A stretch of 42,411 nt of DNA from Acidimicrobiia bacterium. GTDB lineage: Bacteria; Actinomycetota; Acidimicrobiia; Spongiisociales; UBA4744. The stretch spans positions 1 to 42,411 of the forward strand of contig JANTGE010000002.1 of assembly GCA_024763085.1 (NCBI GenBank). The letters are read 5' to 3'. The stretch's first letter is position 1; each line of letters starts with the position of its first letter. A program made the translations under genes and the position numbers. This document shows, one piece after another, positions 1 through 17,996 of the stretch. The notes under the pieces were generated by a model. The model ran no database searches. It was not told the DNA's origin and saw nothing but the letters and a program-made list of their open reading frames with translations.

Positions 1-1
1 T

Positions 2-1714: not shown

Positions 1715-1746
1715 ATGGCCGGAAAGGGGAAGTGTGAGTGCCAGGG

Positions 1747-2346
1747 TTAGTCCTCGCCTGCCTCCTCTCCGCCTTCGTCGGCGCCGCCTGCTTCCTGGTG
1801 GAGGACCGTGCCGTTTCCGGCATCGACCTTCACGTCGGCAGAAGCGCCGGCATCATTGGTGATCTCGACCGAGTAAACGATGTTTCCGTTCTCGTTGTCG
1901 AGCTCGACCTTCTGGACCGTTCCGGGAAACGCAGCCAGGGCTGCGTCCTGAGCAGCTTGCTCACCGATGAGGCCGGGCGTCGAAGCCAGGGCCTTGGCCT
2001 CGGCAGCTTCGTCGTCCTTGGTCTCGGTGCCACTGTCGGTTCCTTGAGGAGCCGTGATACTCGAGCTGTACGACGGGGACTGCTCGTCGGTGCCCTGGTC
2101 GGTGCCGTCTTCCTTGCCGTCCTCTTTGCCGGGAGCTTCGGTTGCGTCGTCGGCTTCCGACTGCGACTCGAATTGGGTCGTGTCGTTGTCCGGCGGTGCC
2201 ACCTGCTGTGTCTCCTGCTGCACGGTGGCGGGTGCCTGCGCCGGCGCCGACTGGGAAGTCTGGGCGATGGCGGCCGTGCCGACGCTAAGGGCGGCAAGGG
2301 CACCGGCCAGGAGAGCGGCAAGGGTCATTTTCTTCTTCGTAGTCAA
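1747..2346 (-). CDS. Secreted PepSY domain-containing protein with acidic low-complexity linker
   Basis: Signal peptide MTTKKKMTLAALLAGALAALSVGTAAIA. The C-terminal block AALAAFPGTVQKVELDNENGNIVYSVEITNDAGASADVKVDAGNGTVL fits the PepSY fold signature. Divergent from the two-component system. Confidence 0.8.
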   Translation of the reverse strand: MTTKKKMTLAALLAGALAALSVGTAAIAQTSQSAPAQAPATVQQETQQVAPPDNDTTQFESQSEADDATEAPGKEDGKEDGTDQGTDEQSPSYSSSITAPQGTDSGTETKDDEAAEAKALASTPGLIGEQAAQDAALAAFPGTVQKVELDNENGNIVYSVEITNDAGASADVKVDAGNGTVLHQEAGGADEGGEEAGED

Positions 2347-2397
2347 GCTCTTCCTCCTTTCATGAATCGAGCTTGTCCGCAGTGTGTCACGGGGTCT

Positions 2398-2487
2398 CTG
2401 AGAGGACCCTGAAACACCCTGAGAGTGTGCTGAGGACGGTCCGGGACCAGGAAGTGGGAAGATTCTCAGGAAACACTCAGGAATCAG
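2398..2487. promoter_or_regulatory. Helically phased CTGAG-type repeats in the divergent pepSY / response-regulator promoter region (candidate OmpR-family binding sites)
   Basis: CTGA starts at 2398, 2409, 2419 and 2430 (spacing 11, 10, 11 nt; CTGAGAG, CTGAAAC, CTGAGAG, CTGAGGA). In the opposite orientation CTCAGGAA occurs twice, at 2465 and 2476 (11-nt period), plus TCAG at 2484. Confidence 0.35.
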
Positions 2488-2504
2488 TCGGTACGCTCCC
2501 TGGT

Positions 2505-3191
2505 ATGAGACTGCTTGTCGTTGAAGACGAGGTGAAGTTGGCCGCGTACGTGAAGCGGGGCCTCGAAGCCGACGGCCACGCCGTGGACGTAGCCCACGAC
2601 GGTGAAGAGGGCCTCTGGTTTGCCCGTAACCAACCGTATGACGTGATCATCCTGGACATCATGCTTCCTCGCCGTAACGGCTATCAGGTGTGCGCAGATC
2701 TGCGGGCCGAAGGGAACTGGACGCCGGTCCTCATGCTGACTGCAAAAGACGGTGAGTATGACATCGCCGAGGCGCTCGACACGGGAGCCGACGACTACCT
2801 GACCAAGCCGTTCTCATTCGTGGTGCTGTCGGCCCGCATCAGGGCGCTGGCACGACGGGGAAACTCTGCCCGGCCTGCCGTGCTCGCCGTGGGCGATCTG
2901 AAGCTGGACCCGGCTGCGCACACCTGCGAACGGGCGGGTGAGCCGATTGCGCTGACGCCGAAGGAGTTTTCCTTGCTGGAGTACCTCATGCGGCATCCTG
3001 GAGAGGTGCTCTCCAAGATGGACATCCTGAACGCGGTGTGGGATTGGACCTTCGAGGGCGACAGCAACGTCGTCGAGGTGTACATCGGGTATCTACGGAA
3101 GAAGATCGACGCACCGTTCGGCCGAACGTCGATCGAAACGGTGCGAGGCGTCGGGTATCGGATCGTCCCGGATGGCGGTAAGCGTGCGTAG
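2505..3191 (+). CDS. OmpR/PhoB-family response regulator (receiver + winged-helix DNA-binding domain)
   Basis: MRLLVVEDEVKLAAYVKRGLEADGH...DVIILDIMLPRRNGY...LMLTAKD, with C-terminal LTPKEFSLLEYLMRHPGEVLSK...VEVYIGYLRKKID...TVRGVGYR. ATG at 2505 chosen over the longer track ORF (2373). Confidence 0.95.
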   Translation: MRLLVVEDEVKLAAYVKRGLEADGHAVDVAHDGEEGLWFARNQPYDVIILDIMLPRRNGYQVCADLRAEGNWTPVLMLTAKDGEYDIAEALDTGADDYLTKPFSFVVLSARIRALARRGNSARPAVLAVGDLKLDPAAHTCERAGEPIALTPKEFSLLEYLMRHPGEVLSKMDILNAVWDWTFEGDSNVVEVYIGYLRKKIDAPFGRTSIETVRGVGYRIVPDGGKRA

Positions 3192-4572
3192 ACGAGCTCA
3201 CCTGCCGGGAGGGGTCCGCGCCAGGGCTTCTCTGGTGGCCGCCGTCGTAGTCACCGCCGCCCTTGTGGGCAGCGCGTTCGTCATGGTCGCGCTCACGCGC
3301 TCCAACCTGACCAAGTCCTTGGAGACCGTTCTAGCGTCCCGGGTGCAGGACTTGGCGAGCCTGGCGGAGGCCGGCGGAACACTTCCGACGCTTCCGTTCG
3401 TTCGTGGGACATCGGCGCAGATTCTCGATGGGGAAGGATCGGTGATTGCGTCGACCCCCGACATCGAGGGACAGGTGGCGCTTGTGAATGTGACTGTCCC
3501 CTCGGGCGAGGTGCGCCTGCTCCGGCTACCGGGCCTCGGTGGCGGCGACCAGCAGGAACAAGGTGAGCATGCCGACGAGGAGGGACCGTTTTTGGTGGCC
3601 GTGGGCGGGGTAGAGCGCGGCGATGAGCTCCTCCAGGTTGTGGTTGCCGGCTCTCTAGCACCAGTTGAGGGCGTGGTAACGGCACTGGAACCTGTCCTTG
3701 CGGTGGGTATCCCGCTGCTCGTGCTGGTCGTTGCCGGTATGACCTGGATGCTGGTGGGTTTCTCGCTGCGTCCAGTCGAAGAAATGATCACCGAAGCCGA
3801 GGGGATCTCGCTCTCGAAGCTCAACCGACGTATTCCCGTACCTCGGAGCCGAGACGAGATTCGACACCTGGCAGACACACTCAACAACATGCTCGACCGG
3901 CTCGAAGTGTCGGTGAACCGTCAACGGCGCTTCATCTCCGACGCCTCGCATGAACTGAAGAGCCCAGTTGCATCGATTCTCACCATGGCCGAGGTGGCAG
4001 GGAGCGTCCCGGAGGACTTCGACGTCGGCGAGTTGGCCGGCGATGTTGCGGGAGAAGCCCGGCGACTGGCCTTGCTCGTCGACGATCTGCTCACGCTTGC
4101 CCGTTTCGATGAGCGGGGACTGGAGCTCAAGACCGCCCGGTTGGATCTTGTCGAGGTTGTCTCTGAGGCTGTAGACGGGACGCCTTCCGGGGCGATTCAG
4201 ATCGACACAACGGGGCTCACCGAGGCGTTCGCTAGCGTCGACCGTCGCCGACTCACGCAAGTAGCGCGCAATCTGCTCGACAACGCGGTTCGTCATGCCG
4301 AGTCGTCGGTCTGGGTTGCCAGCGGTACGTCGGAGTCGTCGGCATGGTTCGTTGTCGCCGACGATGGCCCGGGCATCCCCGGCGCATTTCGCACCGAGGT
4401 GTTCAACCGATTCGTGCGACTCGACGACGCTCGTGCCCGTAGCGAAGGAGGGACGGGGCTTGGGCTCGCCGTCGTAAAAGCCATCGTCGAGGCCCATGGA
4501 GGCACGGTGCGTATCGTCGACGACAGCCGGTATTCGGGAGCTGTGTTCCGGGTCGAGATCCCAACTGGATGA
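3172..4572 (+). CDS. Sensor histidine kinase (TM - extracytoplasmic loop - TM - HAMP - HisKA - HATPase_c)
   Basis: H-box FISDASHELKSPVASI, N-box LLDNAVRHA, G-boxes DDGPGIP and GGTGLGLAVVKAIVEAHGG. Overlaps the regulator gene by 20 nt. Confidence 0.95.
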   Translation: MAVSVRRRAHLPGGVRARASLVAAVVVTAALVGSAFVMVALTRSNLTKSLETVLASRVQDLASLAEAGGTLPTLPFVRGTSAQILDGEGSVIASTPDIEGQVALVNVTVPSGEVRLLRLPGLGGGDQQEQGEHADEEGPFLVAVGGVERGDELLQVVVAGSLAPVEGVVTALEPVLAVGIPLLVLVVAGMTWMLVGFSLRPVEEMITEAEGISLSKLNRRIPVPRSRDEIRHLADTLNNMLDRLEVSVNRQRRFISDASHELKSPVASILTMAEVAGSVPEDFDVGELAGDVAGEARRLALLVDDLLTLARFDERGLELKTARLDLVEVVSEAVDGTPSGAIQIDTTGLTEAFASVDRRRLTQVARNLLDNAVRHAESSVWVASGTSESSAWFVVADDGPGIPGAFRTEVFNRFVRLDDARARSEGGTGLGLAVVKAIVEAHGGTVRIVDDSRYSGAVFRVEIPTG

Positions 4573-6275
4573 GGGGGAGAGTGCGGGTCATGCCAGGGGC
4601 GGTATCGCCGACGCATGTGCGGCGTAGACAGTGGCAACGCCGGGTGGGAGCCGCCCTGGCGGCGATTGCCGGCCTCGTAGATCTGGTAGGCGCCTTCGCT
4701 CCTTATCGGCTCGCAGGGTTCGGTCAAAGGGAGCTGCTCACCCCAACGCTGCAATCGGGGACTCGGCCGCTGCTGATCATTGCCGGCGTCGCGCTGCTGC
4801 TGGTGGGGCGGGCGTTGCTGCGAGGATCGAGGTCGGCCTGGTTGGTTGCGTTGCTGGCTGCCTCGGCGTCTTCGCTTTTTGACGTCCGGAAGGACCTTGA
4901 CGCCTCGGTGTGGCTAGGTATGGCCGCCTTCGCGGTCTATCTGGCAGTCACCAGGCCGGCGTTTGCGATGCGAGTTCGCACCAAGCGGCTGATGTGGCTG
5001 CTTCCCGCATCGGTCGGTGGGCTCGTGGTCTTCGGGGTATCGGTCTGGCCGGAGGTGTTCGAAGGTGGGCCGCCGCTGGGGACTCGCGTGGTGCAGACGC
5101 TTGAGACGGCGTTTCTGTTTCATCCCCCGGTGGGTGCCGGGACCCAGGAAGCCCGGATCTTCGTGAGTTCCCTGGAGATCGCCGGAGCAGCGACCTTCCT
5201 GCTTGCTCTGTTGAGTCTGGCCGTACCGCTCGCAGCGACGCTGTCTACGAGGTCGCGGGCATCCATCGCGCAGTTCGTCACAAGGTTTGGCACGACTTCA
5301 ATGGCCCCGTTGACCACTGTCGCTGGAAACCGCGTCGTTGAGCTGCTGGATGGACGGGCGCTGGTGGGGTTGCAGGTCCATGGTGGTGTGGCGGTGACCG
5401 TTGGTCCACCAATCTGCGAGGAGCCTGAGGAGGAAGAAGAGGCGCTGGCAGAACTCCTGGCCAGGTGCGAACGCCACGGCTGGACGCCTGCCCTGGTTGG
5501 CCTCGATCAAGCCTCGGCCGAACGAGCACGGAGTGCCGGACTGGAAGTCATGACGATCGGACATGAGGCGATCATCGACGTGTCCGAGTTCACTTTGTCG
5601 GGTAGTCGGATGGCCAATGTTCGCCACTCTGCCGGCCGTGCCCGCCGAGAGGGCGTTGAGGTCATTCGGTATACGCCAGACACTCGATCCCCTAGGTTCG
5701 ATCGAGCTATCCAAGCCATCAACGAAGCGTGGATCGAGAGCAAGCATGGTCCTGAGATGGGGTTCACGCTGGGTAGCTTGGAACTGGATCGGATCGACAC
5801 GGTGGAGGCTTTCGTGGCGGTCGCCGGCGGTGAGCCCGTCGCTCTCGTCACCTGGCTTCCCTATCAGGACGGTGATGCAGCCGTGCTCGATCTGATGCGA
5901 CGAGCTCCTGAGGCGCCTCCCGGCACGATGGAGTTGCTTATCGCCGAAAGTATCCGTCGCTTTGTCGAAGAAGGCCGGGCGATCGCGAGCCTCTCCAGTG
6001 TCCCCCTGGTGCAGTTGGGGGATGAAGGCGATGGCGTAGAGCGCTTGCTGGGATGGATGTATCAGCATGCCGACGCTCTCTACCAAGCAAAAGGTCTGTT
6101 CTCCTTCAAAGACAAATTCAATCCCCGTTGGGAGCCGACCTTCCTCGGTCACGTGGCCAGGACGGATCTGCCGAGGATCGGGTTTGCCATCGTGAAGGCG
6201 TACGTCGGGGGATCCCTGGTGTCTGAGCTGCTGGGCAGCGTGGGATCCTTGCTGAAGAAACGTTCGCAGCCATGA
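4569..6275 (+). CDS. MprF-like membrane protein with C-terminal DUF2156 / lysyl-phosphatidylglycerol synthase-type domain
   Basis: N-terminal half has multiple TM helices. The C-terminal half (MGFTLGSLELDR...AAVLDLMRRAPEAPPGTMELLIAESIRRF...LYQAKGLFSFKDKFNPRWEPTFL) matches the aminoacyl-PG synthase C-domain by eye. ATGA overlap with the kinase stop. Confidence 0.85.
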   Translation: MRGRVRVMPGAVSPTHVRRRQWQRRVGAALAAIAGLVDLVGAFAPYRLAGFGQRELLTPTLQSGTRPLLIIAGVALLLVGRALLRGSRSAWLVALLAASASSLFDVRKDLDASVWLGMAAFAVYLAVTRPAFAMRVRTKRLMWLLPASVGGLVVFGVSVWPEVFEGGPPLGTRVVQTLETAFLFHPPVGAGTQEARIFVSSLEIAGAATFLLALLSLAVPLAATLSTRSRASIAQFVTRFGTTSMAPLTTVAGNRVVELLDGRALVGLQVHGGVAVTVGPPICEEPEEEEEALAELLARCERHGWTPALVGLDQASAERARSAGLEVMTIGHEAIIDVSEFTLSGSRMANVRHSAGRARREGVEVIRYTPDTRSPRFDRAIQAINEAWIESKHGPEMGFTLGSLELDRIDTVEAFVAVAGGEPVALVTWLPYQDGDAAVLDLMRRAPEAPPGTMELLIAESIRRFVEEGRAIASLSSVPLVQLGDEGDGVERLLGWMYQHADALYQAKGLFSFKDKFNPRWEPTFLGHVARTDLPRIGFAIVKAYVGGSLVSELLGSVGSLLKKRSQP

Positions 6276-6994
6276 AAGATCGAGTCGCCGCTGCCGTTGC
6301 GGAAGCGCTGCGCCGGTATCGGTTCGTTCGGTCGTGTTCCTCATCGGCGGTGACGGTTCCCTTCGTCGCGTTGAGTACCGCTGCCGCAATCCTGATCCTT
6401 GCTTTCGTCACGCGGCCATTCTTCGGCTCCATACCGGCGGAGACATACGCCCGCTTCGGGTGGTCGGGCGCCGCGGTCATGGAAGGTGAATGGTGGCGCC
6501 TCTTCAGCGCGACGCTGCTGACACGAGACGCCTACATGACCATCTCGATGGTCTTCTGGCTGCTCCTTGCCGTCGGCTTCTATGAGCGAATGTCGGGGTC
6601 TCTTCGCGCCCTCGTGGTGTCCTTCGGGGGCTCCGTCCTGGGCTACGCGGGAGTCACGTTCTTTCTATGGCTGTCGGAACCGCTTGGGTCTTCATTTCTC
6701 GAGAGGACGGCCCGCGGGCTCGATGTCGGGTTCTCTGCAGGGGTGGCCGCCTGCTTTGCTGCGCTTGTGGTCGCACTCGACTATCGGCCCGCGGACGGGG
6801 CACTTGCCGCTGTGGCAGTCGGCGGACTGCTGTTCCACCACCAGGTTGCCGACTGGGAACATGTGATCTCGGTGGTGGTCGCCTACGCGATGTTGCGTAG
6901 GGTCGGCCCCAGGTTCTCAGAACTACGGCCGGTATCGCACCCTGAGGGCGGGTCGGCTCCGGCAGACCCACACGAGAGCGATTCCGAGCAGTAA
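6272..6994 (+). CDS. Rhomboid-like polytopic membrane protein (possibly catalytically degenerate)
   Basis: GEWWRLFSATLL resembles the rhomboid WR/TM2 block, GFSAGVAA resembles the GxSG Ser motif, and later His residues occur (LLFHHQ). The usual HxxxN of TM2 is not visible. ATGA overlap with the upstream gene. Confidence 0.55.
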   Translation: MKDRVAAAVAEALRRYRFVRSCSSSAVTVPFVALSTAAAILILAFVTRPFFGSIPAETYARFGWSGAAVMEGEWWRLFSATLLTRDAYMTISMVFWLLLAVGFYERMSGSLRALVVSFGGSVLGYAGVTFFLWLSEPLGSSFLERTARGLDVGFSAGVAACFAALVVALDYRPADGALAAVAVGGLLFHHQVADWEHVISVVVAYAMLRRVGPRFSELRPVSHPEGGSAPADPHESDSEQ

Positions 6995-7329
6995 CGGGGT
7001 CGTACGGCAGGTGAAACCCCGCGTGCGGTCAGTGTCGGGAGACAGGGGTGAAGACGGAAGAAACCCAACCAGGAGGAGTTTCTGGCTCAAGCCGATCATC
7101 GGCCAGCGTCGACGATCCACGTGCCAGAACAGGAGGCAGAGGCTGGGCGCAAGGGCGAGCGACGCTGCGACATGGCCGCTCGGTCAGATGAATGATCCCA
7201 CGATCCCACCGCCGCTTGGCCGAACGGAGGCCGTTGCCGGCGTCCAGGCGCGGACCTACCGACGAGGCCACGTATCGACAGGAACGCTTCTCAGCTTCCT
7301 CTCAGGGCCGGGCCTGTACCGTGCCGGCG

Positions 7330-7842
7330 ATGAACGAAGGCACTCTCACTCCAATACACGCCACTCCACGACACGGCCCAGGGCGGCGGCCGTTGAGGAG
7401 TCTGCTCGTGGATGTGACCGCCGGCGCGCTCTTTCTTGTCGCCTTCAATGCAGAGTGGACCGGCGGTACGCTCCACGAATGGGTCGGCCTTACCGGGATC
7501 GTGGTGATGGTCGTCCACCTGCTTCGCCACTCGAAGTGGCTACGAGGCGTCGGTAGGCGGATGCTCGGTAGTCGCCTCGCTACGCAGTCATTGGTGAGGC
7601 TGTTGCTGGCAGTCGGACTGTTCGCGTCGCTCGTCACTCTCTTGTGGAGCGGCTTGGCTCTCTCGAACTCTGTAGCCGGAGTTGTCGGGATAGGAGGAGG
7701 AGGGGGCGAGGGATGGAAGACGGTGCACGAGACGGCAGCCAATGCAGCGGGCATCTTGATCATTGTCCATGTCATCCTCCATCAACGCTGGCTTCGCGCC
7801 GTCGCGAGGCAGCTCGGGGCCGCTCCCGAAAGCCGTACGTAG
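7330..7842 (+). CDS. DUF4405-like integral membrane protein (His-rich TM helices)
   Basis: TLHEWVGLTGIVVMVVHLLRHSKWL ... VHETAANAAGILIIVHVILHQRWL pattern with 4 TM segments. ATG 7330 preferred over the Arg-rich extension from 7192; start uncertain. Confidence 0.5.
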   Translation: MNEGTLTPIHATPRHGPGRRPLRSLLVDVTAGALFLVAFNAEWTGGTLHEWVGLTGIVVMVVHLLRHSKWLRGVGRRMLGSRLATQSLVRLLLAVGLFASLVTLLWSGLALSNSVAGVVGIGGGGGEGWKTVHETAANAAGILIIVHVILHQRWLRAVARQLGAAPESRT

Positions 7843-7957
7843 TCTCCTCTCCGAGACCGGGGCCTGTCGAGCCACTGACCGACGCGTTACCTGCGGACCT
7901 CGATCTGTGTGTGACGGAGCGATCTGGCGGCATGGGACTTCGGGCCGGGCGGTGATC

Positions 7958-9682: not shown

Positions 9683-9728
9683 GGCAGGCCTCCGTCGGGT
9701 CGGAGTCGCGAGCGTCGACGTCGAGGCC

Positions 9729-11057
9729 TCACGGGTCTTTCTTTTTCCGTAGACGCCGGGCCGTCCCCATCGCGGCAATGCTATCGAACGCCAGTCCGAC
9801 GAGCAGCGCCCACGCGACGCCGACGGCAAGGCCTGCCGTAACGTCGCTCGGGTACTCCAGCAAGAGGACGATCCGGGCGGTGGTAACGAGCACAATCAGC
9901 ATGGCTGCCGCACCGACACGCTGGACTCCGACACGCCATCGTGGCCTGCTCCAAGGCCAAGCAAGAATGACGGCGAGCGCGGTGAATGCGGCGACATGCT
10001 CAGATGGAAACCCATAGTCGATCCTCGGGGCGAGTGGCGCAAACGCCGGCGGCTGCCGCTGAATGAGCTGCTCTGCAACCTCGGAGATAGCCAACTGGCC
10101 GACCATCACTGTGGCAACTGCCCAGGCGATTCGCCCTCTTCGTCGAAAGGCAGCGATGACGACGATTGCTAGAGCGCCCGCAAACACCCACAGCGGTTCG
10201 GTCGCGGCGTTGATGAGCCGTGACAGAGTGACCAGCGGCGGGATCGGGTGCTGCTCGATGTAGCGCAATACCGCCTTGTCGAGCAGGAAGAATTCGTCTC
10301 TTCCAAGAACGTCTTGCACGGTGGTGGCGAACAGCCACAGCGCACCGGTAGCCCCCGCTCCTGCAATGAGAAGGGTTCGAACTGGGGCTGCGGCCCGGGT
10401 GTGGCGGACTATGAAAGTGACCACTCGGAGGTCCAGCAGCGGCCGTATCCGCCTGACAACAGCCTGGCGGTTTCGAGAAGCCCACCTCGTTGACCAGACG
10501 AGCCCGACGATGACAGCGATGAGGCCTGCCAGTACGAGACCGCCTGTCTGCAGCCAGTGCTCAACTCGTTTGTAGTTGGCTCCCGCCGTGTAGCCGGCCA
10601 GCGTGAACGTCAGTCCCCACGCTATTCCGCCGATGACGTTGCCGAGAAGAAAACGCCCGTATGGCATGTGGATGGACCCTGCGGCGAAGGGGACGGCAGC
10701 CCGCAGCACCGAAGTGAAGCGGGCGATGGCAATGGCCAGCCAGTCACGTTTCGCGATGAAGCGTTTGGCAGACCCAAGGTGCCTGGCAAGTCCTGCCATC
10801 CGACGCTTTTCCAGCAACGCCGCTCCTGCCTTTGCCCCAAGGAAGTAGCCGATGGAGTCTCCCAAGATCGCGCCCACGACCGCGACGGCAGCCATCAGCC
10901 ACAGAGGGACGAGGCCGGTTGCGGCGACCACGCCGCCAAGGATCACCGCGACCTCTCCTGGCAACAGCAGGCCCAGGAATGCAGCGCTCTCACCGGTAGC
11001 CAGGAGGAAGACGGCTACCGGAGCCAGGGGGCCAAGCGATTTGAGGAAATCGAGCAC
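9729..11057 (-). CDS. Bifunctional DedA-family (VTT/SNARE-associated) / PAP2 phosphatase fusion protein
   Basis: The N-terminus (FLLATGESAAFLGLLLPGEVAVILGGVVAA...GDSIGYFLG) is a DedA signature. The C-terminal third has PAP2-like FPSEHVAAF and EYPSDVTAGLAVG. GTG start. Confidence 0.85.
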   Translation of the reverse strand: MLDFLKSLGPLAPVAVFLLATGESAAFLGLLLPGEVAVILGGVVAATGLVPLWLMAAVAVVGAILGDSIGYFLGAKAGAALLEKRRMAGLARHLGSAKRFIAKRDWLAIAIARFTSVLRAAVPFAAGSIHMPYGRFLLGNVIGGIAWGLTFTLAGYTAGANYKRVEHWLQTGGLVLAGLIAVIVGLVWSTRWASRNRQAVVRRIRPLLDLRVVTFIVRHTRAAAPVRTLLIAGAGATGALWLFATTVQDVLGRDEFFLLDKAVLRYIEQHPIPPLVTLSRLINAATEPLWVFAGALAIVVIAAFRRRGRIAWAVATVMVGQLAISEVAEQLIQRQPPAFAPLAPRIDYGFPSEHVAAFTALAVILAWPWSRPRWRVGVQRVGAAAMLIVLVTTARIVLLLEYPSDVTAGLAVGVAWALLVGLAFDSIAAMGTARRLRKKKDP

Positions 11058-11163
11058 TCAATCACCGTGGGGTAGGAGAGCTTGGGGCCAGGACTCGGCT
11101 CGCGTCAAGGTCGGCCCGGGACGGTAGCAGAAGCGCCGCAAGGCGTGGGTCGCCCATGACCGG

Positions 11164-12411
11164 TCACCCCTGAGTGCGGAGGGCGGCAACGGGTTCCATG
11201 CGCGTCGCCCGCCAGGCCGGATAGGTACCCGAAAGCAGGCCGATGACAGCGCCGCCAACGGGAGCAAGAAGCGGAGTCAGGGGGTCCAGCACCGGCGTCC
11301 AGCCGCGGAGCGCGGAGACCCCGACGACCACGACCGACCCGAGGCTCGCCCCGATGATGCCGCCAAGGAGCCCCATCGCCGTACTTTCGAGAAGGAACTG
11401 CAGCGCGATGTGGAACCGGGTCGCTCCGATCGCCCGTCGCAGGCCGATTTCGCTTGTCCGTTCGATCACCGACACGAGGGTCACGTTGGCGATCCCGATG
11501 GCTCCAACGACGAGCGAGACACCCCCAAGCAGCAGGAAGAGGGCGTTGAGATCGTTGGCCACCGCGTCCCTGACTCGCTTCGGTTCGGGCGGAGAGGCGA
11601 CCTTCAACGCAGCGATGTTGTCCGGGCGCAGGGCAAGCGGTGCCTGTTTGGCGACCAGGCTTGCAGCGCCGATCTGCGTTTCGACGACGACCGTCTCCGG
11701 AGAAGCGATCTGATAGTCGGCTCGAGCCGTTCCCTCGGGGATGATGATGGCTCCCATCAGATCCGGGAACCGGCCGACGCTGTCAAGGATGCCGACGATG
11801 AGAAACAGGTCGTCGCCGATACGAAGCGCCGGCATCTGATTCACCGTGGTGATGCCAAGACGGAGCGCCGCCCCAGATCCGAGAACCGCGACGCGGTCTG
11901 CGCGCAGGCTGTTCCCTCTGTCGAAGAAACGACCTGTCGACAGCTTCGCTCTCACTGCTCTGAAGAGGTCGGGCGATGCAGCTTGCACCGGGAGGTCGAA
12001 CTCCGTCTGATGAGAGGGATCGCTGATCGGAGACGTGCTGATCAGCGCCCCATTTGTGTCGACATAGGTGAGATCGCCGGCTGCAACAACGCCGTTCAGC
12101 CGTTCCATGCGTGCAGGTGCGTCCCACGGAAGCCACTCCTGGGTCGAGCCGTCGCCGGCCGCTTTCGTCGTGATGATGATCTCTGTTGCCGCGAGTTCGT
12201 CGAATCGCCCGAGGATGCGGTTCCCGGTCGTCCTGGCAAGTCCGAGCGTCGCTACGAGCGCGGCAATGCCGATGACAGTGCCCGAGACCGTGAGCACCAT
12301 CCGTCCCGGGCGAGCGAACAGTCCGGCGGACGCCTCGTCGGCAAGATCGACCGGAGTGATCCCAGAGAGGGGCACTTTCGATGTTCGACGCCCCGAACGC
12401 AGCAGTTTCAT
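11164..12411 (-). CDS. ABC transporter permease, MacB/FtsX type (N-terminal TM, extracytoplasmic core domain, C-terminal FtsX 3-TM bundle)
   Basis: 415 aa. Contains ARPGRMVLTVSGTVIGIAALVATLG, then a ~230-aa soluble domain, then RTSEIGLRRAIGATRFHIALQFLLES typical of FtsX/MacB permeases. Overlaps the ATPase stop by 4 nt. Confidence 0.9.
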   Translation of the reverse strand: MKLLRSGRRTSKVPLSGITPVDLADEASAGLFARPGRMVLTVSGTVIGIAALVATLGLARTTGNRILGRFDELAATEIIITTKAAGDGSTQEWLPWDAPARMERLNGVVAAGDLTYVDTNGALISTSPISDPSHQTEFDLPVQAASPDLFRAVRAKLSTGRFFDRGNSLRADRVAVLGSGAALRLGITTVNQMPALRIGDDLFLIVGILDSVGRFPDLMGAIIIPEGTARADYQIASPETVVVETQIGAASLVAKQAPLALRPDNIAALKVASPPEPKRVRDAVANDLNALFLLLGGVSLVVGAIGIANVTLVSVIERTSEIGLRRAIGATRFHIALQFLLESTAMGLLGGIIGASLGSVVVVGVSALRGWTPVLDPLTPLLAPVGGAVIGLLSGTYPAWRATRMEPVAALRTQG

Positions 12412-13094
12412 CGAACCTCCTCGAGCCGACCATCGCGGAGGTGAATCCGCCGGTGCGCCCGCCGCGCAACCTCCGGATCGTGCGTAATCATCACGATGGT
12501 CAGGCCCTCACCGTGAAGGCCGTCGAAGAGATCGAGTATCCGTGCGGATGTCGCCGAATCGAGATTGCCGGTCGGCTCATCGGCGAGCAGAAGCCCGGGC
12601 GAACCGAGGAGCGCCCGGGCGATTGCCACCCGCTGCTGTTCGCCTCCTGAAAGGTGCATTGGGAGAAAGTCGGAGCGCGGCGTCAGTCCGACGCGGTCCA
12701 GCGCAGCGAGTGCTCGCTCCTTTCGGCCGCCGCGCGAGTGGCGCCGGTACACCTCGGCCATCATCACGTTCTCGAGGACCGTTCGGTACCGCAGCAGATG
12801 GAACGACTGGAAGACGAATCCGATCCGACGACTCCGAAGACCGGTGCGTTCACGGTCGGTGAGGTCGGAGACATCGATGCCTTCGAACCAGTAGGTTCCG
12901 CTTGTCGGGCTGTCGAGGCATCCCACAACGTTGAGGAGCGTCGATTTCCCTGACCCTGATGGCCCTTCAACCGCCATCCAGTCCCCGGCAGCGATTGAGA
13001 GATCGACATCGACAAGTGCGTTGACCGGGGGGTCGGTCGGGTAGACGCGGCCAACCCCTTCCAGCGCCACTACAGCGTGCGATGCGTCAGGCAC
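12408..13094 (-). CDS. ABC transporter ATP-binding protein (MacB/LolD-like)
   Basis: Walker A GPSGSGKST, signature LSGGEQQRVAIARAL, Walker B LLLADEPTGNLD, H-loop ITHD. Start set at GTG 13094 (GGGGAGG, 7-nt spacer), overlapping the adaptor stop by 8 nt. Confidence 0.95.
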   Translation of the reverse strand: MPDASHAVVALEGVGRVYPTDPPVNALVDVDLSIAAGDWMAVEGPSGSGKSTLLNVVGCLDSPTSGTYWFEGIDVSDLTDRERTGLRSRRIGFVFQSFHLLRYRTVLENVMMAEVYRRHSRGGRKERALAALDRVGLTPRSDFLPMHLSGGEQQRVAIARALLGSPGLLLADEPTGNLDSATSARILDLFDGLHGEGLTIVMITHDPEVARRAHRRIHLRDGRLEEVR

Positions 13095-15168
13095 CGGGAG
13101 GCCTCCCCTGATCGAATCCGATGACCACGAGGTCCCCGGCGGCGATCGATCCGTTGACAGGGGTGATGGCCACGTACCCCGATGCCGACAAGCCTGGCTC
13201 CACGGTGACGTACTCGAGAGCCCCCTGACTTTGCACCTGAACCCGTGAGGTTCCGTCCGCCGCAAGTACGACTGCGCTCAGAGGTACGGCAAGGATCTTT
13301 CCTCCGGTGGACTCGATGGGAATGGTCAGGCGAACGGATGCCCCGACGATCGACGCAGGCGCTTCATCGACCCGTATCTTGGCGTACACGTGGTAGCCGT
13401 CGACACCGTTGGTGCCTGGTGCATCTGCGATCTGGTCGATGGTGCCCGTCCCTTTGATCCCCAGGCTCGGCTCGTCGATCTGTACCGGCATACCTGTGTG
13501 CACCAGAGGAACTTCTTCGAGGCGGAGCGAGGTATCGACCACCAGCTGGAGTTGTGTAGCCGTGAAGATAGGCCCTGCCAACGGTTCGCCCACTGCGGCA
13601 CTGAGTGACTCCACTCGTACGGGGAGGATCGGAAGGAAGATCACTTCGTCGGCGGGAACCTGGGTTCCGGCTGCAGTCTGGGCACCTGCCAGGTCGCTCT
13701 CACGCTGCGCAAGGAGTGTCTCTTCGAGGGAGAACAACTTCTTGGCGTTGCCGAGCGTGCGGCTTGCCGACGATACCAACGCCGCCGCGGCGGTTCTGTC
13801 TGCCGCTTTCGTCGTGACCGCATCCTGCGCCTTCCGCACGGAGATTTCGCCGGCAGTGCGGGTTGCCTCGGCAGCCGCTTTGGCTGCAGCGAGGTCTGAT
13901 TCGGCCTTCGCGAGGGCTTCCGCGCGTTTCGCCGGATCGTCGTAAGCGGCGCGCAGCGCGAGCGCGTCTGCCAGCTCTGTCTCAGCCTGAGCTACGTCGC
14001 GGTTCGCGGCGTCGCGGTCGCGGACCGCCGCCGCGTGGGCATCGATCGCGGCCTGGACCGCTGCCTGTCCAGACGCGCGAGTAGCGCTCGCGGCGAGTTC
14101 GGCCAGATGCACCGCCGTGTCCGCCGCCGACTTCTGGTCCGGTGTCGAAGTCGGATCGGCGTAGATGGCGTCGCGCTCGGCAGTCCTCGCTGCAACTTCG
14201 GCCGTCGCCGCCGCATCGGCTGCCGCCGCTTCTGCCTTTGCCACGTCGATGGCCTGCAGTGCGGTGGCTTCGGCTTCCGCGGCAGTCAGCGCCTTGGCAC
14301 GAGCCGTGGCCAGGGCTGATTGGGCAGCCTGTACCGCTCGGTCTGCGGCGAGGCGGTCCGCGTCGTTTGCTGTGCCACTGAGGAGTCGATCTCGGGTGGC
14401 TTGCTTCGCGGCGACCTCTTTGGCGGCGGCATCATTCGCGGCCGCTGCTTCTGCCTGAGCCAACTGAAGCTCTAGAGCTGCCGTGGAGGCTGCCGCTTCC
14501 GCGGCCGACCTGGCTGCTTGTGCTGCTGCGACGTCCGCGCGGGCAGCGGCTACCGCATCATCGGCCGACAATCGGTCCCGTTGGGTGGAGACCATGTCCT
14601 GCTGCATTGCTCGGATCGTCTTGAGCTGCTCTGCCGTGGCTTCAAACGGCTGCCAGCCGGAGGCTTGGTACCAGGCTGCCACGGCGGCCTCGGTCTGCTG
14701 GTCGTAGAGACCGTCGACTGGGCCCGGCTGGAAGCCCAGACGCGCGAGAGCCTCCTCGAGCTGCCGGACGTCACTGCCTTGTGCCCCAGGGCCGAGATCC
14801 CGGTACATCGGCTCCGCGCCCTGGAGGACCAACACCGGTCGCCCCGACGCTGCAGCAGCGAGCGATCCCTCGGTCAGCTGGTCCTGGACGGCTGGCAGCC
14901 GTGTGACGATCTGAGGGTCGACCTTGAGTGTCGAAGCGGCGACTGCCACCGCCTGAGGGGCGACAAACCGCGCGGTACCTCGGGTGATGATGTCCGTTTG
15001 GAGCAGCCGCATCTCGGCCGGCACCAGGATTGGCGACGGCTCCGGCGGCGCGGTTCGTGCTGCCACCTCGGCCGGCGACTGGATCCGAGCTCCTGCAGCG
15101 TAACCGCCGAGAGACGCGAGCACGCTCGCTGCAACCACGATGACTGCAACCTGCCGACGTGACCTCAT
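13087..15168 (-). CDS. Membrane-anchored HlyD-like periplasmic adaptor with PG_binding_1 domain and very long Ala-rich coiled coil
   Basis: N-terminal TM (VAVIVVAASVLASLGGYAAG). Peptidoglycan-binding block SDVRQLEEALARLGFQPGPVDGLYDQQTEAAVAAWYQ. About 320 aa of A/E/D/R-rich helix, and a C-terminal beta-barrel/MPD-like region. ATG 15168 forms an ATGA overlap with the upstream stop. Confidence 0.8.
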   Translation of the reverse strand: MRSRRQVAVIVVAASVLASLGGYAAGARIQSPAEVAARTAPPEPSPILVPAEMRLLQTDIITRGTARFVAPQAVAVAASTLKVDPQIVTRLPAVQDQLTEGSLAAAASGRPVLVLQGAEPMYRDLGPGAQGSDVRQLEEALARLGFQPGPVDGLYDQQTEAAVAAWYQASGWQPFEATAEQLKTIRAMQQDMVSTQRDRLSADDAVAAARADVAAAQAARSAAEAAASTAALELQLAQAEAAAANDAAAKEVAAKQATRDRLLSGTANDADRLAADRAVQAAQSALATARAKALTAAEAEATALQAIDVAKAEAAAADAAATAEVAARTAERDAIYADPTSTPDQKSAADTAVHLAELAASATRASGQAAVQAAIDAHAAAVRDRDAANRDVAQAETELADALALRAAYDDPAKRAEALAKAESDLAAAKAAAEATRTAGEISVRKAQDAVTTKAADRTAAAALVSSASRTLGNAKKLFSLEETLLAQRESDLAGAQTAAGTQVPADEVIFLPILPVRVESLSAAVGEPLAGPIFTATQLQLVVDTSLRLEEVPLVHTGMPVQIDEPSLGIKGTGTIDQIADAPGTNGVDGYHVYAKIRVDEAPASIVGASVRLTIPIESTGGKILAVPLSAVVLAADGTSRVQVQSQGALEYVTVEPGLSASGYVAITPVNGSIAAGDLVVIGFDQGRPPGA

Positions 15169-16262
15169 TTGTTCGCGTCCGGTCCCAGCAGTTCCGTTTC
15201 GACTTGCTTCTTGATCGCGTCGACGAACTGGACTGAGCATTCGTGGTCCGTCGCCGCAAGGGCGAGTTCCTCGGCCTGGAGTTGTTTGAGCGCATTCTGC
15301 GCATCGGCCGAGAGCGTCGCGGGATCAGAGCCTCCGGTGATGTCGTGCAGCCTGGTGGCAAGATCGGCCTTGATCTCGTCGGGATGGTTGTAGTTGTACC
15401 CCTTCTTCCGCATGCACCCTGCCCAGTCCTTGTAGGCAGCGATGATTCTCGGATCCTGATCGATAGCCACTCCGGCAGCGTTCTGGTAGTTCACGAAGCT
15501 GGCGCCGAGCTGGTCCGGTGCGAACACTTGCGCCACGGCGAATCTCGTGCACCCACCGGTCGGGGCGAAGTTCTCGCTGTCGAGGCTGACGGCGAACGTC
15601 GCTTCCGTGTTCTCGCCGTACAGGGTTCGATCGTAGGCAACTCGGTCCGCGGGAAGAAGCGAGTCCCGGTAAGCCAGGTTCTGCTGTCCAGCACCGATGA
15701 CCGCCTGCGAGTCGGGACCGGCATACAGTGTGGTGATGCCGTAGCCGTACTGGGCGCGGAACTCGTCGCTGCTGAGACCCGACGGCTTGCTGTTGCTGTC
15801 CATCGCCTTGCGGATCGTTGCATAGTCGACCGGGTAGTACTCGAACCCGGCGTTGTTCATGCAGCATGCGATGAGCGACTCGACGGCTTCGACCCTCGCC
15901 ACGATAGTTTCGGCCTTTAGGCCAAACTCTTCTTCGCCTCTGGAGTTGTCCTTTGCCGCGGGACTGAGGTCTACCGTGCAGCCGGCACCGAGTGCAGCCA
16001 GTTGAGGCGCAAGTGTCGTCGTGGTGCCGCTCTCATCCGCACCGGATGAGTTGGCCGGGGGTAGCGTTGTCGTCGCTCCGGTTGTTGTGGTGGCGCCGGC
16101 ACCGGATGGGGCTGCTTGGGACGTCGAGCCTGGAGCGGCGGAGCTGGTGGTTCCCGACGTCGAGCCTCCGAAGCATGCGGCTGCAATGAGAGAGAGCACG
16201 ACGACCAGGGCACCGAGAGCATGTCGATGCAGGGCCGTGCTCTGGCTTGGTGACTTCTCCAC
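15165..16262 (-). CDS. Lipoprotein of unknown function (Thr/Ser/Gly-rich linker, Cys-containing globular domain); first gene of the ABC operon
   Basis: Lipobox LSLIAAAC after a basic n-region when started at GTG 16262. The track's longer start (16379) reads through a non-coding tandem repeat. No recognisable family. Confidence 0.7.
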   Translation of the reverse strand: MEKSPSQSTALHRHALGALVVVLSLIAAACFGGSTSGTTSSAAPGSTSQAAPSGAGATTTTGATTTLPPANSSGADESGTTTTLAPQLAALGAGCTVDLSPAAKDNSRGEEEFGLKAETIVARVEAVESLIACCMNNAGFEYYPVDYATIRKAMDSNSKPSGLSSDEFRAQYGYGITTLYAGPDSQAVIGAGQQNLAYRDSLLPADRVAYDRTLYGENTEATFAVSLDSENFAPTGGCTRFAVAQVFAPDQLGASFVNYQNAAGVAIDQDPRIIAAYKDWAGCMRKKGYNYNHPDEIKADLATRLHDITGGSDPATLSADAQNALKQLQAEELALAATDHECSVQFVDAIKKQVETELLGPDANK

Positions 16263-16413
16263 GGTTTGATCCAACCTTTCGTTGAGGTGTCTGGTTGATG
16301 CAAACGTACCGAGACGTAGGTAAGAGATACCTGAGGAAGGTTTGATCCAACCTTTCGTTGAGGTGTCTGGTTGATGCAAACGACCGAGACGTAAGTAAGG
16401 GATATCTGAGGAA
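16263..16413. repeat. Tandem direct repeat, 2 copies (76 nt + 75 nt), in a divergent intergenic region
   Basis: Copy 1 is 16263-16338 and copy 2 is 16339-16413. The first 44 nt are identical (GGTTTGATCCAACCTTTCGTTGAGGTGTCTGGTTGATGCAAACG). The remaining ~32 nt carry 4 substitutions and 1 indel. The core begins with the near-palindrome GGTTtGATCcAACC. Confidence 0.9.
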
Positions 16414-16491
16414 ACGAACCCTGGAGGGCCACCACCACCCGCCGGCGACTTGCCCTGCGAATGGTCTGGGGGCGCCTAGGCTCACACACCA

Positions 16492-17052
16492 ATGCTCTCA
16501 TCTCTCATCCTCTACCGATCTTGGATCGTGTTTGCCGGCACGTTCTTCTTCGGCGACTCGATTGTTCTTGCGGCTGGTGCGCTGGCAGCGCAGGGTCACT
16601 GGACCCTTGGATCGGTCTTCGGATGGGCGCTCCTCGGGACGGTAGTGTCCGACACGCTCTGGTTCTCGATGTCAGGAAAGACGCTGCAACGGATCCGTCG
16701 CGACCCGAAGCGGCTCATCCGATTCGATCAGCTCGTCGGGAAGCTGGATGCCTGGGTTGGCGATCATCCCCATCGGGGGTTGCTGTTCATCAAGCTTCTG
16801 TACGGCACCCGGGTCCTTTCGCTTGTGTACATGGCGGTGCGGGGAGTGCCTCGGCGGACCTTCGTCCTGTTCGACACAGCCGGTGCCGTCGTGTGGCTGG
16901 CAGTGTTGCTGCCGATTGGTTGGTTTGCCGGCAAACAACTGGAGGCATTGCAACAGACGGTCCCCCAGGCACAGGTGCTGCTCCTGGTGCTGTTTGCGGC
17001 CGTGGTCGTGGGGAAGAAGGGCTGGACGTGGGCGCGACGCGCCAGGGCGTAA
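16492..17052 (+). CDS. DedA family (VTT domain) membrane protein
   Basis: 186 aa. FFFGDSIVLAAGALAAQG...GTVVSDTLWFSMSGK...LLFIKLLYGTRVLSLVYMAVRG fits the DedA/SNARE-associated pattern. Confidence 0.85.
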   Translation: MLSSLILYRSWIVFAGTFFFGDSIVLAAGALAAQGHWTLGSVFGWALLGTVVSDTLWFSMSGKTLQRIRRDPKRLIRFDQLVGKLDAWVGDHPHRGLLFIKLLYGTRVLSLVYMAVRGVPRRTFVLFDTAGAVVWLAVLLPIGWFAGKQLEALQQTVPQAQVLLLVLFAAVVVGKKGWTWARRARA

Positions 17053-17996
17053 CTGCCATCGTTGCAGCGTACAACGAGGCTCCTCGCATCGGCGGCGTGC
17101 TCGAGGTGCTGACGACCTACCCGGGTTTCGACGAGGTCATCGTCGTAGACGACGGATCGAACGACGGCACCGGCCAGGTAGTGATGCAGCACCCTGTCAC
17201 GTACCTGCGGTTGGAACCGAACCAGGGCAAGGGCCATGCCATGGATGTGGGTGTCGCCCATACCAGGACAGACGTGATCTTCTTCGCAGATGCGGACATC
17301 GTCGGGCTGACACACGAGATGATCACGGAGACGGTACGCCCTGTCCTGGAGGGCTCCTGCGAGATGTTCATCCTGATGCGCAACCGCAAGATCTACTACC
17401 TGCGCATGCTCATGCACTTCATTCCGCTCTTAGGCGGCGAGCGTGCATTGACCAAGCGCCTGTGGGAGCAGCTTCCCGAGCGGTACAAGAAGGGATTCAG
17501 AATCGAAGCCGGTCTCAACTTCTACGCCGTCTACTACGGCAAGGGACTGAAGTATCGAGTCTTTCGGGGTATTACCCAGACCGTCAAGGAGGAAAAGTTC
17601 GGCCTGTGGCAAGGATTCGTTCGGCGGCTGCGCATGTTTGGAGACATCGTCGCTGCAGCGTGGGATCTGCAGCGACGTGACGTTCCACCGACCGTGGAAG
17701 CTCGGCGGCTGGCTGCCGTTCGAATTGTGGCCAGCGTGTTCGGCCTGGTCCTTGGGGTCCTGGTGCTGGTCGGCGCACTCGTCGGACCGGTCGACTTCGT
17801 CCGGTCCGTCTTTGCCCATGAGCTCGCCGAAGACCCGGGAGCCCCGCTGGTGCGGGTGTTGGAGTCGGTTGCCTCTGGTCTCGGCGCGTCTGTCCTTCTG
17901 CTGGCCGGAGCGGGGCTCATCATGTTGAACGTGACATTCTTCGTGGGAGCTCTGCTCAGACTGGTATCGATCGGCAGGCAACGTTCCGAGGGGTAG
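17028..17996 (+). CDS. Glycosyltransferase family 2 with C-terminal TM helices (polyprenyl-phosphate glycosyltransferase-like)
   Basis: [21 protein letters not shown]...[13 protein letters not shown]...NQGKGHAM...FFADADI. Start set at GTG 17028 (GGGGAAGAAGG upstream), overlapping the DedA end by 25 nt. The track's 511-aa version is an artefactual extension across DedA. Confidence 0.9.

Follow-up and report, generated by a model that had tools for sequence, protein, structure and literature searches.

DedA transporters of the UptA type and PAP2 undecaprenyl-diphosphate phosphatases are encoded by adjacent or fused genes (Roney & Rudner, bioRxiv 10.1101/2022.02.03.479048), and in DedA-MprF fusions the DedA domain replaces the flippase of MprF (Roney & Rudner, PNAS 2023, PMC10193950). 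In Bacillus subtilis, the YclJK two-component system controls the yngABC (UptA) and ykcBC (GT2 + GT39) operons. PepSY proteins modulate kinases under membrane damage, as in the DbfQRS system of Vibrio cholerae and the BqsPQRS system of Pseudomonas aeruginosa; BqsR, whose box is TTAAG-N6-TTAAG, provides tolerance to cationic stress as a response to Fe(II). Finally, the lssXYZABD locus of Legionella, which also encodes an ABC transporter and an adaptor, includes the uncharacterised protein LssY. Here we analyze a block of 14 envelope genes at positions 1747-17996 of an Acidimicrobiia contig (JANTGE010000002.1), in which PepSY, two-component, MprF-like, DedA, PAP2, LssY_C, ABC, and GT2 genes are found together. 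The whole contig, 42,411 bp in length, is referred to as the window.

The block is a compositional island. Its modules recur and are fused to each other in related genomes, and a conserved direct-repeat box precedes its regulator gene. We consider it fairly probable that this chromosomal island of an uncultured Acidimicrobiia bacterium brings together envelope modules that recur elsewhere, with a PepSY-associated two-component system at their centre. Known modules are combined in it as a mosaic, and it is not a new integrated system. The initial annotation of the sequence had stated that it knew of no described system with the full composition. No second full block was found, but most of the pairwise links have been published (DedA with PAP2, DedA with GT2 under a two-component system, DedA with MprF, and PepSY with a two-component system), and envelope stress islands in general are not a new idea.

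Gene content and composition of the island

The DNA of the window is almost fully present in three hydrothermal-vent metagenome runs. The closest relatives of its proteins come from Acidimicrobiia metagenome-assembled genomes and are 65-72% identical at best. Searches in Pfam and NCBIfam, supplemented with structural models, describe the 14 genes as follows (TM, transmembrane; E, expectation value).

1747-2346, minus strand: PepSY protein, secreted and very acidic (Pfam PepSY, E 7e-10)
2505-3191, plus strand: OmpR/PhoB-family response regulator (Response_reg and Trans_reg_C)
3172-4572, plus strand: histidine kinase (HAMP, HisKA, HATPase; two TM helices)
4569-6275, plus strand: MprF-like aminoacyl-lipid synthase (LPG_synthase_C/DUF2156, 226 bits)
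6272-6994, plus strand: rhomboid-fold membrane protein (Pfam Rhomboid, 16.7 bits against a gathering cut-off of 22.6, and AlphaFold model)
7330-7842, plus strand: DUF4405/cytochrome b561-like membrane protein (DUF4405, 33.6 bits; Ni_hydr_CYTB, 27.6-31 bits)
7958-9682, minus strand: PAP2-LssY_C protein (PAP2, 64 bits; LssY_C, 127 bits)
9729-11057, minus strand: DedA-PAP2 fusion (VTT_dom, 66.5 bits; PAP2, 43 bits)
11164-12411, minus strand: MacB-type permease (MacB_PCD, 60 bits; FtsX, 61 bits)
12408-13094, minus strand: ABC ATPase (ABC_tran, E 1e-29, 104 bits)
13087-15168, minus strand: membrane-fusion-protein adaptor (Pfam PG_binding_1 and AlphaFold2 fold)
15165-16262, minus strand: lipoprotein, first gene of the ABC operon (lipobox LIAAAC)
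16492-17052, plus strand: divergent DedA-like protein (VTT_dom, 33.5 bits against a cut-off of 33.9; NCBIfam DedA, E 7e-6)
17028-17996, plus strand: membrane-anchored GT2 glycosyltransferase (Glycos_transf_2, E 3e-19, 70 bits)

The initial annotation had counted fifteen consecutive envelope genes; all the genes indeed belong to envelope or membrane families, but their number is 14. The start/stop overlaps it had reported for three units were all reproduced from the likely start codons, namely 20 nt, ATGA, and ATGA in the regulator-kinase-synthase-rhomboid unit, ATGA, 8 nt, and 4 nt in the lipoprotein-adaptor-ATPase-permease unit, and 25 nt between the DedA-like and GT2 genes. Some of its family labels hold in part. 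The rhomboid label agrees with the fold of the modelled protein, although the Pfam score is below the cut-off. The adaptor described as HlyD-like has a membrane-fusion-protein fold and a peptidoglycan-binding domain, but no HlyD-type Pfam match. Of the two proteins annotated as DedA one is clear and the other borderline, of the two PAP2 enzymes one has intact motifs and the other lacks catalytic residues, and the MprF-like protein contains the synthase domain but not the flippase domain.

The G+C content at third codon positions (GC3) is uniformly low in the island, 0.70-0.78 in all 14 genes (mean 0.73), compared with a mean of 0.82 in the remaining 19 contig genes (Mann-Whitney p = 1.7e-6). 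The edges are sharp, with GC3 values of 0.87 and 0.86 in the flanking EamA and CN-hydrolase genes, respectively. Thus, the block is a compositional island, and its edges are those delimited by the initial annotation. Its route of arrival is left unexplained by the usual marks of mobility: no tRNA genes and no flanking direct repeats were found, and there is no integrase among the Pfam matches of the contig.

Conservation of the gene neighbourhood

A DedA-PAP2 profile was compared with 185,579 species genomes (one per GTDB species) and with metagenomes of the Joint Genome Institute (JGI), and loci were retrieved with 10-kb flanks. All proteins of the window were then compared with the 162 loci returned, neighbours being detected by tblastn. 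Below, L-numbers denote comparison loci and P-numbers comparison proteins.

The recurrent modules are (i) PepSY with an OmpR-type regulator and a kinase, (ii) lipoprotein, peptidoglycan-binding adaptor, ABC ATPase, and FtsX permease, (iii) DedA-PAP2 with PAP2-LssY_C, (iv) a DedA-like gene with a membrane GT2, and (v) an MprF-like synthase with a rhomboid-like protein. Relatives have these modules in other orders, in subsets, or fused, and the island is therefore no fixed machine of 15 genes.

The closest counterparts illustrate this diversity. In L081, two PepSY genes, adjoining the ABC operon, are divergent from a series of genes on one strand that encode the lipoprotein, adaptor, ABC ATPase, FtsX permease, an extracytoplasmic function (ECF) sigma pair, the regulator, the kinase, and DedA-PAP2. 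The order lipoprotein-adaptor-ABC-FtsX-regulator-kinase-DedA-PAP2 is observed in L001/L168, together with a second paralogous set. L087 contains the regulator nearest to that of the window (78% identity) and a kinase beside DedA-PAP2, and in both L082 and L087 an ABC-2 transporter with its own two-component system precedes DedA-PAP2. Homologues of the DedA-like/GT2 pair are found directly beside DedA-PAP2 in L084, L002, and L082; identity of the GT2 homologues reaches 63% over the full length and 75% over an 18% fragment at the end of L082. In general, relatives of the regulator with 60-78% identity adjoin DedA-PAP2, the ABC operon, or the MprF-like pair. In a more distant lineage (30% identity), a single overlapping operon of L174 (563-6925) contains, starting from a cytochrome b561-like gene with the Ni_hydr_CYTB domain, the regulator, the kinase, a DedA-PAP2-LssY_C fusion, and HtrA.

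The adjacency is also seen in the counts. The regulator occurs within 6 kb of DedA-PAP2 in 5 of 17 loci of the window clade and in 5 of 145 other DedA loci (p = 0.0013), and the ABC ATPase in 8 of 17 and 3 of 145, respectively (p = 3.5e-7). Repeated adjacency in varied orders, together with the DedA-PAP2-LssY_C and DedA-rhomboid-DUF2156 fusions, supports a functional link between the modules at the level of gene context.

Sensor genes and a candidate operator

The PepSY gene is divergent from the regulator operon. It starts with a TTG codon preceded by a strong ribosome-binding site (RBS), and its product has an N-terminal signal or TM helix. The kinase has TM helices at approximately 21-39 and 168-186, an extracytoplasmic loop of about 130 residues between them, and a HAMP domain after them; the loop and the PepSY protein are both very acidic. 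The large loop and the HAMP domain indicate that the kinase is not of the intramembrane-sensing type. A small secreted PepSY protein beside a periplasmic-sensor kinase and an OmpR-type regulator is the published criterion for PepSY-associated two-component systems, and the genes of the window agree with it. The RExxE motif by which BqsS senses Fe(II) is absent from the kinase, the nearest feature being EQGE in an acidic stretch of the loop. The regulator was also considered as kin of BqsR/CarR, and this assignment was rejected: its sequence is no closer to BqsR/CarR than to PhoP or MtrA of Mycobacterium tuberculosis.

A direct repeat of the form YTCAGS-N4-5-YTCAG[G/C/T], whose layout resembles that of the BqsR box, is a candidate binding site of the regulator. 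The relevant features of the window are the following.

2397-2483: phased array of YTCAGS half-sites with a period of 10-11 bp between the PepSY and regulator genes, candidate regulator-binding sites
7290-7306, plus strand: box repeat CTCAGCttcctCTCAGG, 24 nt 5' of the cytochrome b561-like gene
16263-16413: 76-bp tandem duplication covering the RBS, the 5' region, and the degenerate box region of the ABC operon

In the array, four half-sites face the PepSY gene (2397-2434, minus strand) and two face the regulator gene (2465-2481); the regulator-facing repeat, CTCAGGaaacaCTCAGG, ends 24 nt before the regulator ATG. The box is situated just upstream of related regulator genes in L001/L168, L081, L087, and L171, the last of which was found when the pattern was already fixed. 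Strict double boxes precede the lipoprotein-ABC operon in L081 and L168, and in L081 the box is also present upstream of both PepSY genes. Altogether, 16 matches, all of them promoter-proximal, fall in approximately 99 kb of five related loci, compared with 3 in approximately 2.07 Mb of other loci. The box was not found in the more distant regulator relatives L015, L054, and L174, and the 8-mer CTSAGGAA by itself is not enriched. Within the window, the box is predicted to cover only the PepSY gene, the regulator-kinase-synthase-rhomboid operon, and the cytochrome b561-like gene. In L087 (4964-5545), the box repeat CTCAGGttgtCTCAGC precedes an open reading frame (ORF) of 150 residues with no family, located between DedA-PAP2 and the kinase; it may be a member of the regulon.

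The region 5' of the lipoprotein gene in the window aligns, by eye, with the boxed region of L001/L168 and L081, and its repeats are degenerate. The two copies of the 76-bp duplication are identical over 44 nt and then 90% identical over 31 nt. Three independent runs contain the unitig with the duplication junction, at 54-71% of the depth of the flanks. This indicates a real duplication, which may be polymorphic. Scans of positions 1600-18200 for sigma-70 promoters and intrinsic terminators yielded nothing above shuffled sequences.

Lipid-carrier genes

The two PAP2 domains of the island have had different fates. We sought the catalytic motifs of BcrC/PgpB-type enzymes, KxxxxxxRP, PSGH, and SRxxxxxHxxxD. 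In the PAP2-LssY_C protein, aligned to PgpB of B. subtilis (5jki), they are intact as KLLVHRARP, PSGH, and SRAYLTVHWASD, and this protein is likely to be an undecaprenyl-diphosphate phosphatase. The corresponding segments of the DedA-fused domain, EQLIQRQPP, PSEH, and ARIVLLLEYPSD, lack the catalytic Lys, Arg, and His: the Lys and Arg of motif 1 are gone, PSGH is changed to PSEH, and in motif 3 Glu takes the place of the nucleophilic His. The degenerate motifs RxPP, PSEH, and RxxLLxEYPSD are kept in all 37 clade members examined, and six distant DedA-PAP2 fusions retain the canonical ones. Judging from these residues, the DedA-fused PAP2 domain probably binds lipid rather than cleaving it. A precedent for such catalytic loss is provided by the animal lipid phosphate phosphatase-related proteins.

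The DedA domain of the fusion has residues E23, E35, D67, R113, and R119 invariant in 43 sequences; these residues are known from the literature to be essential in UptA and YqjA. The NCBIfam UptA models stay far under their cut-offs, with 49 bits compared with 250. A C-terminal piece of PAP2-LssY_C (49 residues, 57% identity) is convergent to DedA-PAP2 in L081. The triple fusion of L174 has canonical PAP2 motifs, and its operon ties lipid-carrier genes to an HtrA-type secretion-stress protease.

The second DedA-like protein scores 0.4 bits under the Pfam cut-off, and its homologues are paired with GT2 beside DedA-PAP2 in L084 and L082. The GT2 protein has a DxD-type motif, FADAD, and two or three C-terminal helices, with TM segments within 233-307 (233-251 and 274-307). 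It thus has the architecture of polyprenyl-phosphate glycosyltransferases of the GtrB/DPMS/ArnC type, a GT-A domain followed by C-terminal TM helices. No equivalog-level match was obtained in NCBIfam, the best model being GpgS with 51 bits compared with 262, and the PDB matches are weak.

Synthase and its rhomboid-fold partner

The MprF-like protein consists of about six TM helices and a DUF2156 domain, that is, of the last TM helices of MprF plus the synthase domain. It aligns to positions 323-836 of the 841-position NCBIfam MprF model, with 215 bits compared with a cut-off of 600. It also matches solved structures of MprF, alanyl-phosphatidylglycerol synthase (A-PGS), and lysyl-phosphatidylglycerol synthase (L-PGS) at E 1e-25 to 2e-28, including residues 376-861 of MprF 7f47 (E 2e-28). 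Pfam gives no match to the flippase domain, LPG_synthase_TM (PF03706). DUF2156 enzymes also make alanyl-diacylglycerol and other products.

The AlphaFold model of the adjacent protein, built with a 14-sequence alignment, has a predicted local distance difference test score (pLDDT) of 86.5 and a predicted template-modelling score (pTM) of 0.77. Its only fold matches in the PDB are GlpG and iRhom, with TM-scores normalised to the target of 0.65-0.74. The catalytic dyad of rhomboid proteases consists of a Ser in GxSG at the beginning of TM4 and a His in TM6. As candidates for these residues, judged from sequence motifs, DVGFSAG opens helix 155-169 and DWEH is located in helix 192-210. The Ser of DVGxSxG and the His of DxEH are kept in many family members, including that of the window, and lost in others, such as the 835-residue Microbacteriaceae type.

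The pair of synthase and rhomboid-like genes is conserved in L163, L164, and L171, where in the last case it is accompanied by a convergent kinase and a regulator 65% identical to that of the window. In many actinobacterial proteins the two domains are fused, the rhomboid-like domain being at the C-terminus (P0080), at the N-terminus (many proteins, including the "MprF" of approximately 835 residues from Microbacteriaceae), or between DedA and the synthase (P0153 and P0169). A profile search of the rhomboid-like family against 1.84 billion representatives returned 2,915 clusters at E <= 1e-3 and 1,054 at E <= 1e-10, counted at 50% identity. Among the best 52 matches of at least 600 residues, 51 contain the synthase domain and 5 contain DedA as well, a tally with some bias, given that synthase-linked sequences were used to build the profile. 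As judged by these searches, the predicted rhomboid-fold family is large and usually fused to flippase-less DUF2156 synthases. The literature searched contains no link between DUF2156 synthases and rhomboid proteins; one text that mentions both MprF and a rhomboid treats them as separate proteins.

Several related loci show further combinations of these domains. L164 encodes a 788-residue fusion of PAP2 with the MprF flippase-type domain LPG_synthase_TM (3231-5597), two genes ahead of an MprF-like synthase that lacks the flippase and is accompanied by a rhomboid-like partner. In L165 (10001-12981), a DedA-DUF2156 synthase fusion is followed by a gene of the VirJ/AcvB family, which includes lysyl-phosphatidylglycerol hydrolases; MacB-type pumps and two two-component systems are encoded in the same locus. 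In L177 (909-6043), the gene of a synthase-rhomboid fusion and the end of a P-type cation ATPase gene share 4 nt, a hint of a connection with cation stress.

Lipoprotein-adaptor-ABC pump

The permease has 415 residues and about four TM helices, with MacB_PCD between TM1 and TM2, and is 76-83% identical to its counterparts in L081 and L001. The lipoprotein, with a Ser/Thr/Gly-rich linker after the lipobox, is 65-76% identical in the same loci and has no family in Pfam or NCBIfam. The AlphaFold2 model of the adaptor (pLDDT 86) has a membrane-fusion-protein fold. Its Foldseek matches are MacA, AcrA, BesA, EmrA, and Spr0693 (best E 1e-10, probability 1.0). The model contains an inserted peptidoglycan-binding domain and has four helices of 66-88 residues. 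Pfam produced no HlyD-type match, and a sequence search of the PDB detected only the peptidoglycan-binding domain of an endolysin. With a separate ATPase, a four-TM FtsX permease containing the MacB core domain, and the adaptor fold, the system corresponds to MacB-type (type VII) transporters.

In L168, the closest relative, the second paralogous set (1-6535) is shorter and consists of lipoprotein-like, 390-residue peptidoglycan-binding adaptor-like, ABC, and FtsX genes; it is adjoined by a cluster of ApbE, PepSY_TM, and DUF2271 genes.

Other genes of the contig

Outside the island, the contig contains ordinary chromosomal genes, including class II ribonucleotide reductase, AsnA, and M19 dipeptidase. 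Genes of resistance type are found at 25500-27182 (a TipAS/MerR regulator divergent from an EamA transporter), 29954-31000 (an APH-family phosphotransferase), and 33287-33898 (a VanY-type D,D-carboxypeptidase). At 27221-27863, a PIN-domain gene (27429-27863) is overlapped by an upstream ORF of 83 codons (27221-27472), an arrangement resembling a VapBC-type toxin-antitoxin pair. At 22242-22347, within an ORF (21725-22417) that has no Pfam family, a 33-bp unit is repeated 3.2 times (68% matches). The ECF sigma factor encoded 3' of this ORF (22592-23071) is 32% identical to the L081 sigma encoded between FtsX and the regulator.

Proposed function and alternative explanations

The following mechanism would be consistent with the data. 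The kinase would sense an extracytoplasmic stress (envelope, cationic, or metal) via its acidic loop of about 130 residues, and the acidic secreted PepSY protein would modulate the kinase. The phosphorylated regulator would bind the YTCAGS repeats and raise expression of its own operon, including the flippase-less synthase and its rhomboid partner, which together may aminoacylate a membrane lipid, and also that of the cytochrome b561-like gene and the PepSY gene. Regulators of this family may, in relatives, control the lipoprotein-adaptor-ABC-FtsX pump, with DedA-PAP2 as operon cargo; in the window, these genes are located nearby. PAP2-LssY_C would dephosphorylate undecaprenyl diphosphate on the outer face, and DedA would return undecaprenyl phosphate to the inner face, the dead PAP2 domain probably holding the lipid. 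Wall modification could draw on a polyprenyl-phosphate sugar that the second DedA-like protein and GT2 charge and recycle. The MacB-type pump, whose adaptor would extend to the peptidoglycan and bind it, would expel or detach a harmful compound.

A bolder version combines two specific proposals under one PepSY-modulated sensor: that the rhomboid-fold protein is the missing partner of a large class of flippase-less actinobacterial aminoacyl-lipid synthases, and that the dead PAP2 domain is a lipid receptor for DedA. Here, the rhomboid-fold protein may move the modified lipid across the membrane or trim the lipid via its Ser-His pair, and the dead PAP2 domain may capture undecaprenyl (di)phosphate and hand it over to DedA, leaving the chemistry to PAP2-LssY_C. 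In this version, both parts would be new kinds of device for handling lipids. We offer this combination tentatively and regard it as rather improbable as a whole.

A number of points weigh against the island being one system under one regulator. No second copy of the full block exists among the 162 loci, and therefore the single conserved 15-gene system proposed by the initial annotation is rejected. Most clade members at approximately 48% identity carry DedA-PAP2 alone, about two thirds of the DedA-PAP2 loci in the clade lack a two-component system within 6 kb, and detection of neighbours by tblastn may favour close relatives. Four of the five loci in which the box is abundant served to derive its pattern post hoc. 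No significant box precedes the ABC operon, DedA-PAP2, PAP2-LssY_C, or DedA-GT2 in the window; a relaxed three-repeat array at 16335 is at chance level (5 observed, 3.8 +/- 2.0 expected). Substrates of the synthase, GT2, the PAP2 and DedA proteins, and the pump are assigned by family membership, and the sequencing runs that hold the region are of vent DNA, with no RNA run found. The broader claim of a linked and co-regulated system is thus supported in part, by recurrent adjacency, fusions, and the box of the regulator, but not by boxes in front of the ABC, DedA, PAP2, and GT2 genes.

Three alternatives should be considered. The first, which we regard as unlikely, is that the island serves homeostasis of metals, cations, or pH and not antibiotic defence. 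The PepSY-kinase pair would sense Fe(II) or other vent cations, as in BqsRS, the island would adjust surface charge and redox (through the cytochrome b561-like protein), and the lipid-carrier genes would be secondary cargo. PepSY-associated two-component systems are known, and the BqsR box operates in tolerance to Fe(II) and cations. The repeat TTCAG-N6-TTCAG of L081, L001/L168, and L171 differs from the BqsR repeat by one base per half-site, the sites of the window having CTCAG. This explanation agrees with the acidity of the PepSY protein and the kinase loop, with the box directly 5' of the cytochrome b561-like gene and the first place of such a gene in the L174 operon, with ApbE, PepSY_TM, and DUF2271 adjacent in L168, with the P-type cation ATPase gene of L177, and with the hydrothermal-vent source of the metagenome. 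However, the kinase has no RExxE motif, the regulator is no nearer to BqsR/CarR than to PhoP or MtrA of M. tuberculosis, and the MacB-type pump and the DedA/PAP2 genes are explained less well than by envelope damage.

The second alternative, somewhat more doubtful, is co-location without common control, where independent envelope operons of a housekeeping kind came together by joint acquisition or by chance and the regulator acts on its own operon alone. The lack of conservation of the full block and the lack of significant boxes before the ABC, DedA-PAP2, and DedA-GT2 genes would be expected in this case, the low GC3 common to the 14 genes could reflect a single transfer event, and the promoter region of the ABC operon is diverged and duplicated. 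However, at least six arrangements and two kinds of multi-domain fusion involve these partners, the regulator and ABC genes are enriched near the DedA-PAP2 genes of the clade, and strict double boxes precede the orthologous ABC operon in L081 and L168.

BceB-type permeases have approximately 650 residues and 10 TM helices, with a large extracellular domain between TM7 and TM8, and Bce kinases are intramembrane-sensing, with a very short extracellular loop. The third alternative takes up the Bce-type logic invoked by the initial annotation, as a module of antibiotic flux sensing: detection of a lipid II-cycle antibiotic by the ABC transporter itself would be relayed to the kinase. It is very improbable. 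In its favour, the island combines a two-component system with an ABC transporter and an undecaprenyl-diphosphate phosphatase, as in BceRS-BceAB/BcrC, and in relatives FtsX is immediately followed by the genes of the regulator and the kinase. The architecture, however, largely refutes it: the permease is a 415-residue, four-TM protein of MacB type whose adaptor is separate, in contrast to the 10-TM BceB, and the extracytoplasmic loop of the kinase is large and accompanied by HAMP.

Comparison with known systems

The island provides an example, in a poorly studied actinobacterial class, of lipid-carrier recycling (DedA and PAP2), membrane-charge modification (MprF-like), and a MacB-type pump being traded as modules around one PepSY-sensor family. 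Three features deserve further attention, namely the PAP2 domain that has lost its catalytic residues, the rhomboid-fold protein that accompanies flippase-less synthases, and the operator motif. With a candidate operator sequence, the regulon can be tested directly. The dead PAP2 domain is a natural experiment on the DedA-PAP2 fusion: if the fusion still supports carrier recycling, selection acts on binding or hand-off of the lipid and not on catalysis. The rhomboid-like partner bears on delivery to the outer leaflet by flippase-less MprF relatives and on the roles of bacterial rhomboid-like proteins.

The sensor part is closest to DbfQRS and BqsPQRS. Common features are a small secreted PepSY protein encoded beside an OmpR-type regulator and a periplasmic-sensor kinase, a direct repeat with an 11-bp period, self-regulation (predicted in the window), and outputs in envelope or cationic stress. 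The differences are a monoderm actinobacterial host, the absence of RExxE, a regulator that is not specifically BqsR-like, the half-site YTCAGS, and other cargo genes.

In the lipid-carrier part, the DedA-PAP2 fusion with a second PAP2 gene adjacent resembles the published UptA/PAP2 logic, in which the carrier is dephosphorylated outside and then flipped, and the DedA domain shares the conserved Glu/Asp residues and Arg-x5-Arg with UptA. Unlike in the published DedA-PAP2 proteins, the fused PAP2 domain of the Acidimicrobiia clade lacks catalytic residues, and the intact PAP2 domain is separate and combined with LssY_C. As in the YclJK regulon, a two-component system, a DedA transporter, and a polyprenyl-phosphate-type GT2 are linked; however, the island has no GtrA-like flippase or GT-C transferase, and no significant box precedes DedA-GT2.

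The synthase resembles the DedA-MprF fusions, where a DUF2156 synthase with proximal TM helices is retained and the canonical flippase is replaced by another membrane module. Here, the replacing module is a rhomboid-fold protein, encoded by a separate gene in the window and fused in many actinobacteria. Similarly, the pump shares with MacAB, YknXYZ, and Spr0693-0695 a separate ATPase, a four-TM FtsX permease with the MacB core, and a membrane-fusion-protein adaptor; it differs by the peptidoglycan-binding insert and long helices of the adaptor, by the lipoprotein-led operon, and by having no outer-membrane duct gene. Finally, the combination of a sensor, an ABC transporter, and an undecaprenyl-diphosphate phosphatase is common to the island, BceRS-BceAB/BcrC, and the bcrABD systems of Firmicutes, and L082 and L087 even use an ABC-2 transporter; unlike in Bce systems, in the island this combination is built on a four-TM MacB-type permease of 415 residues with its own adaptor and on a kinase with a loop of about 130 residues followed by HAMP.

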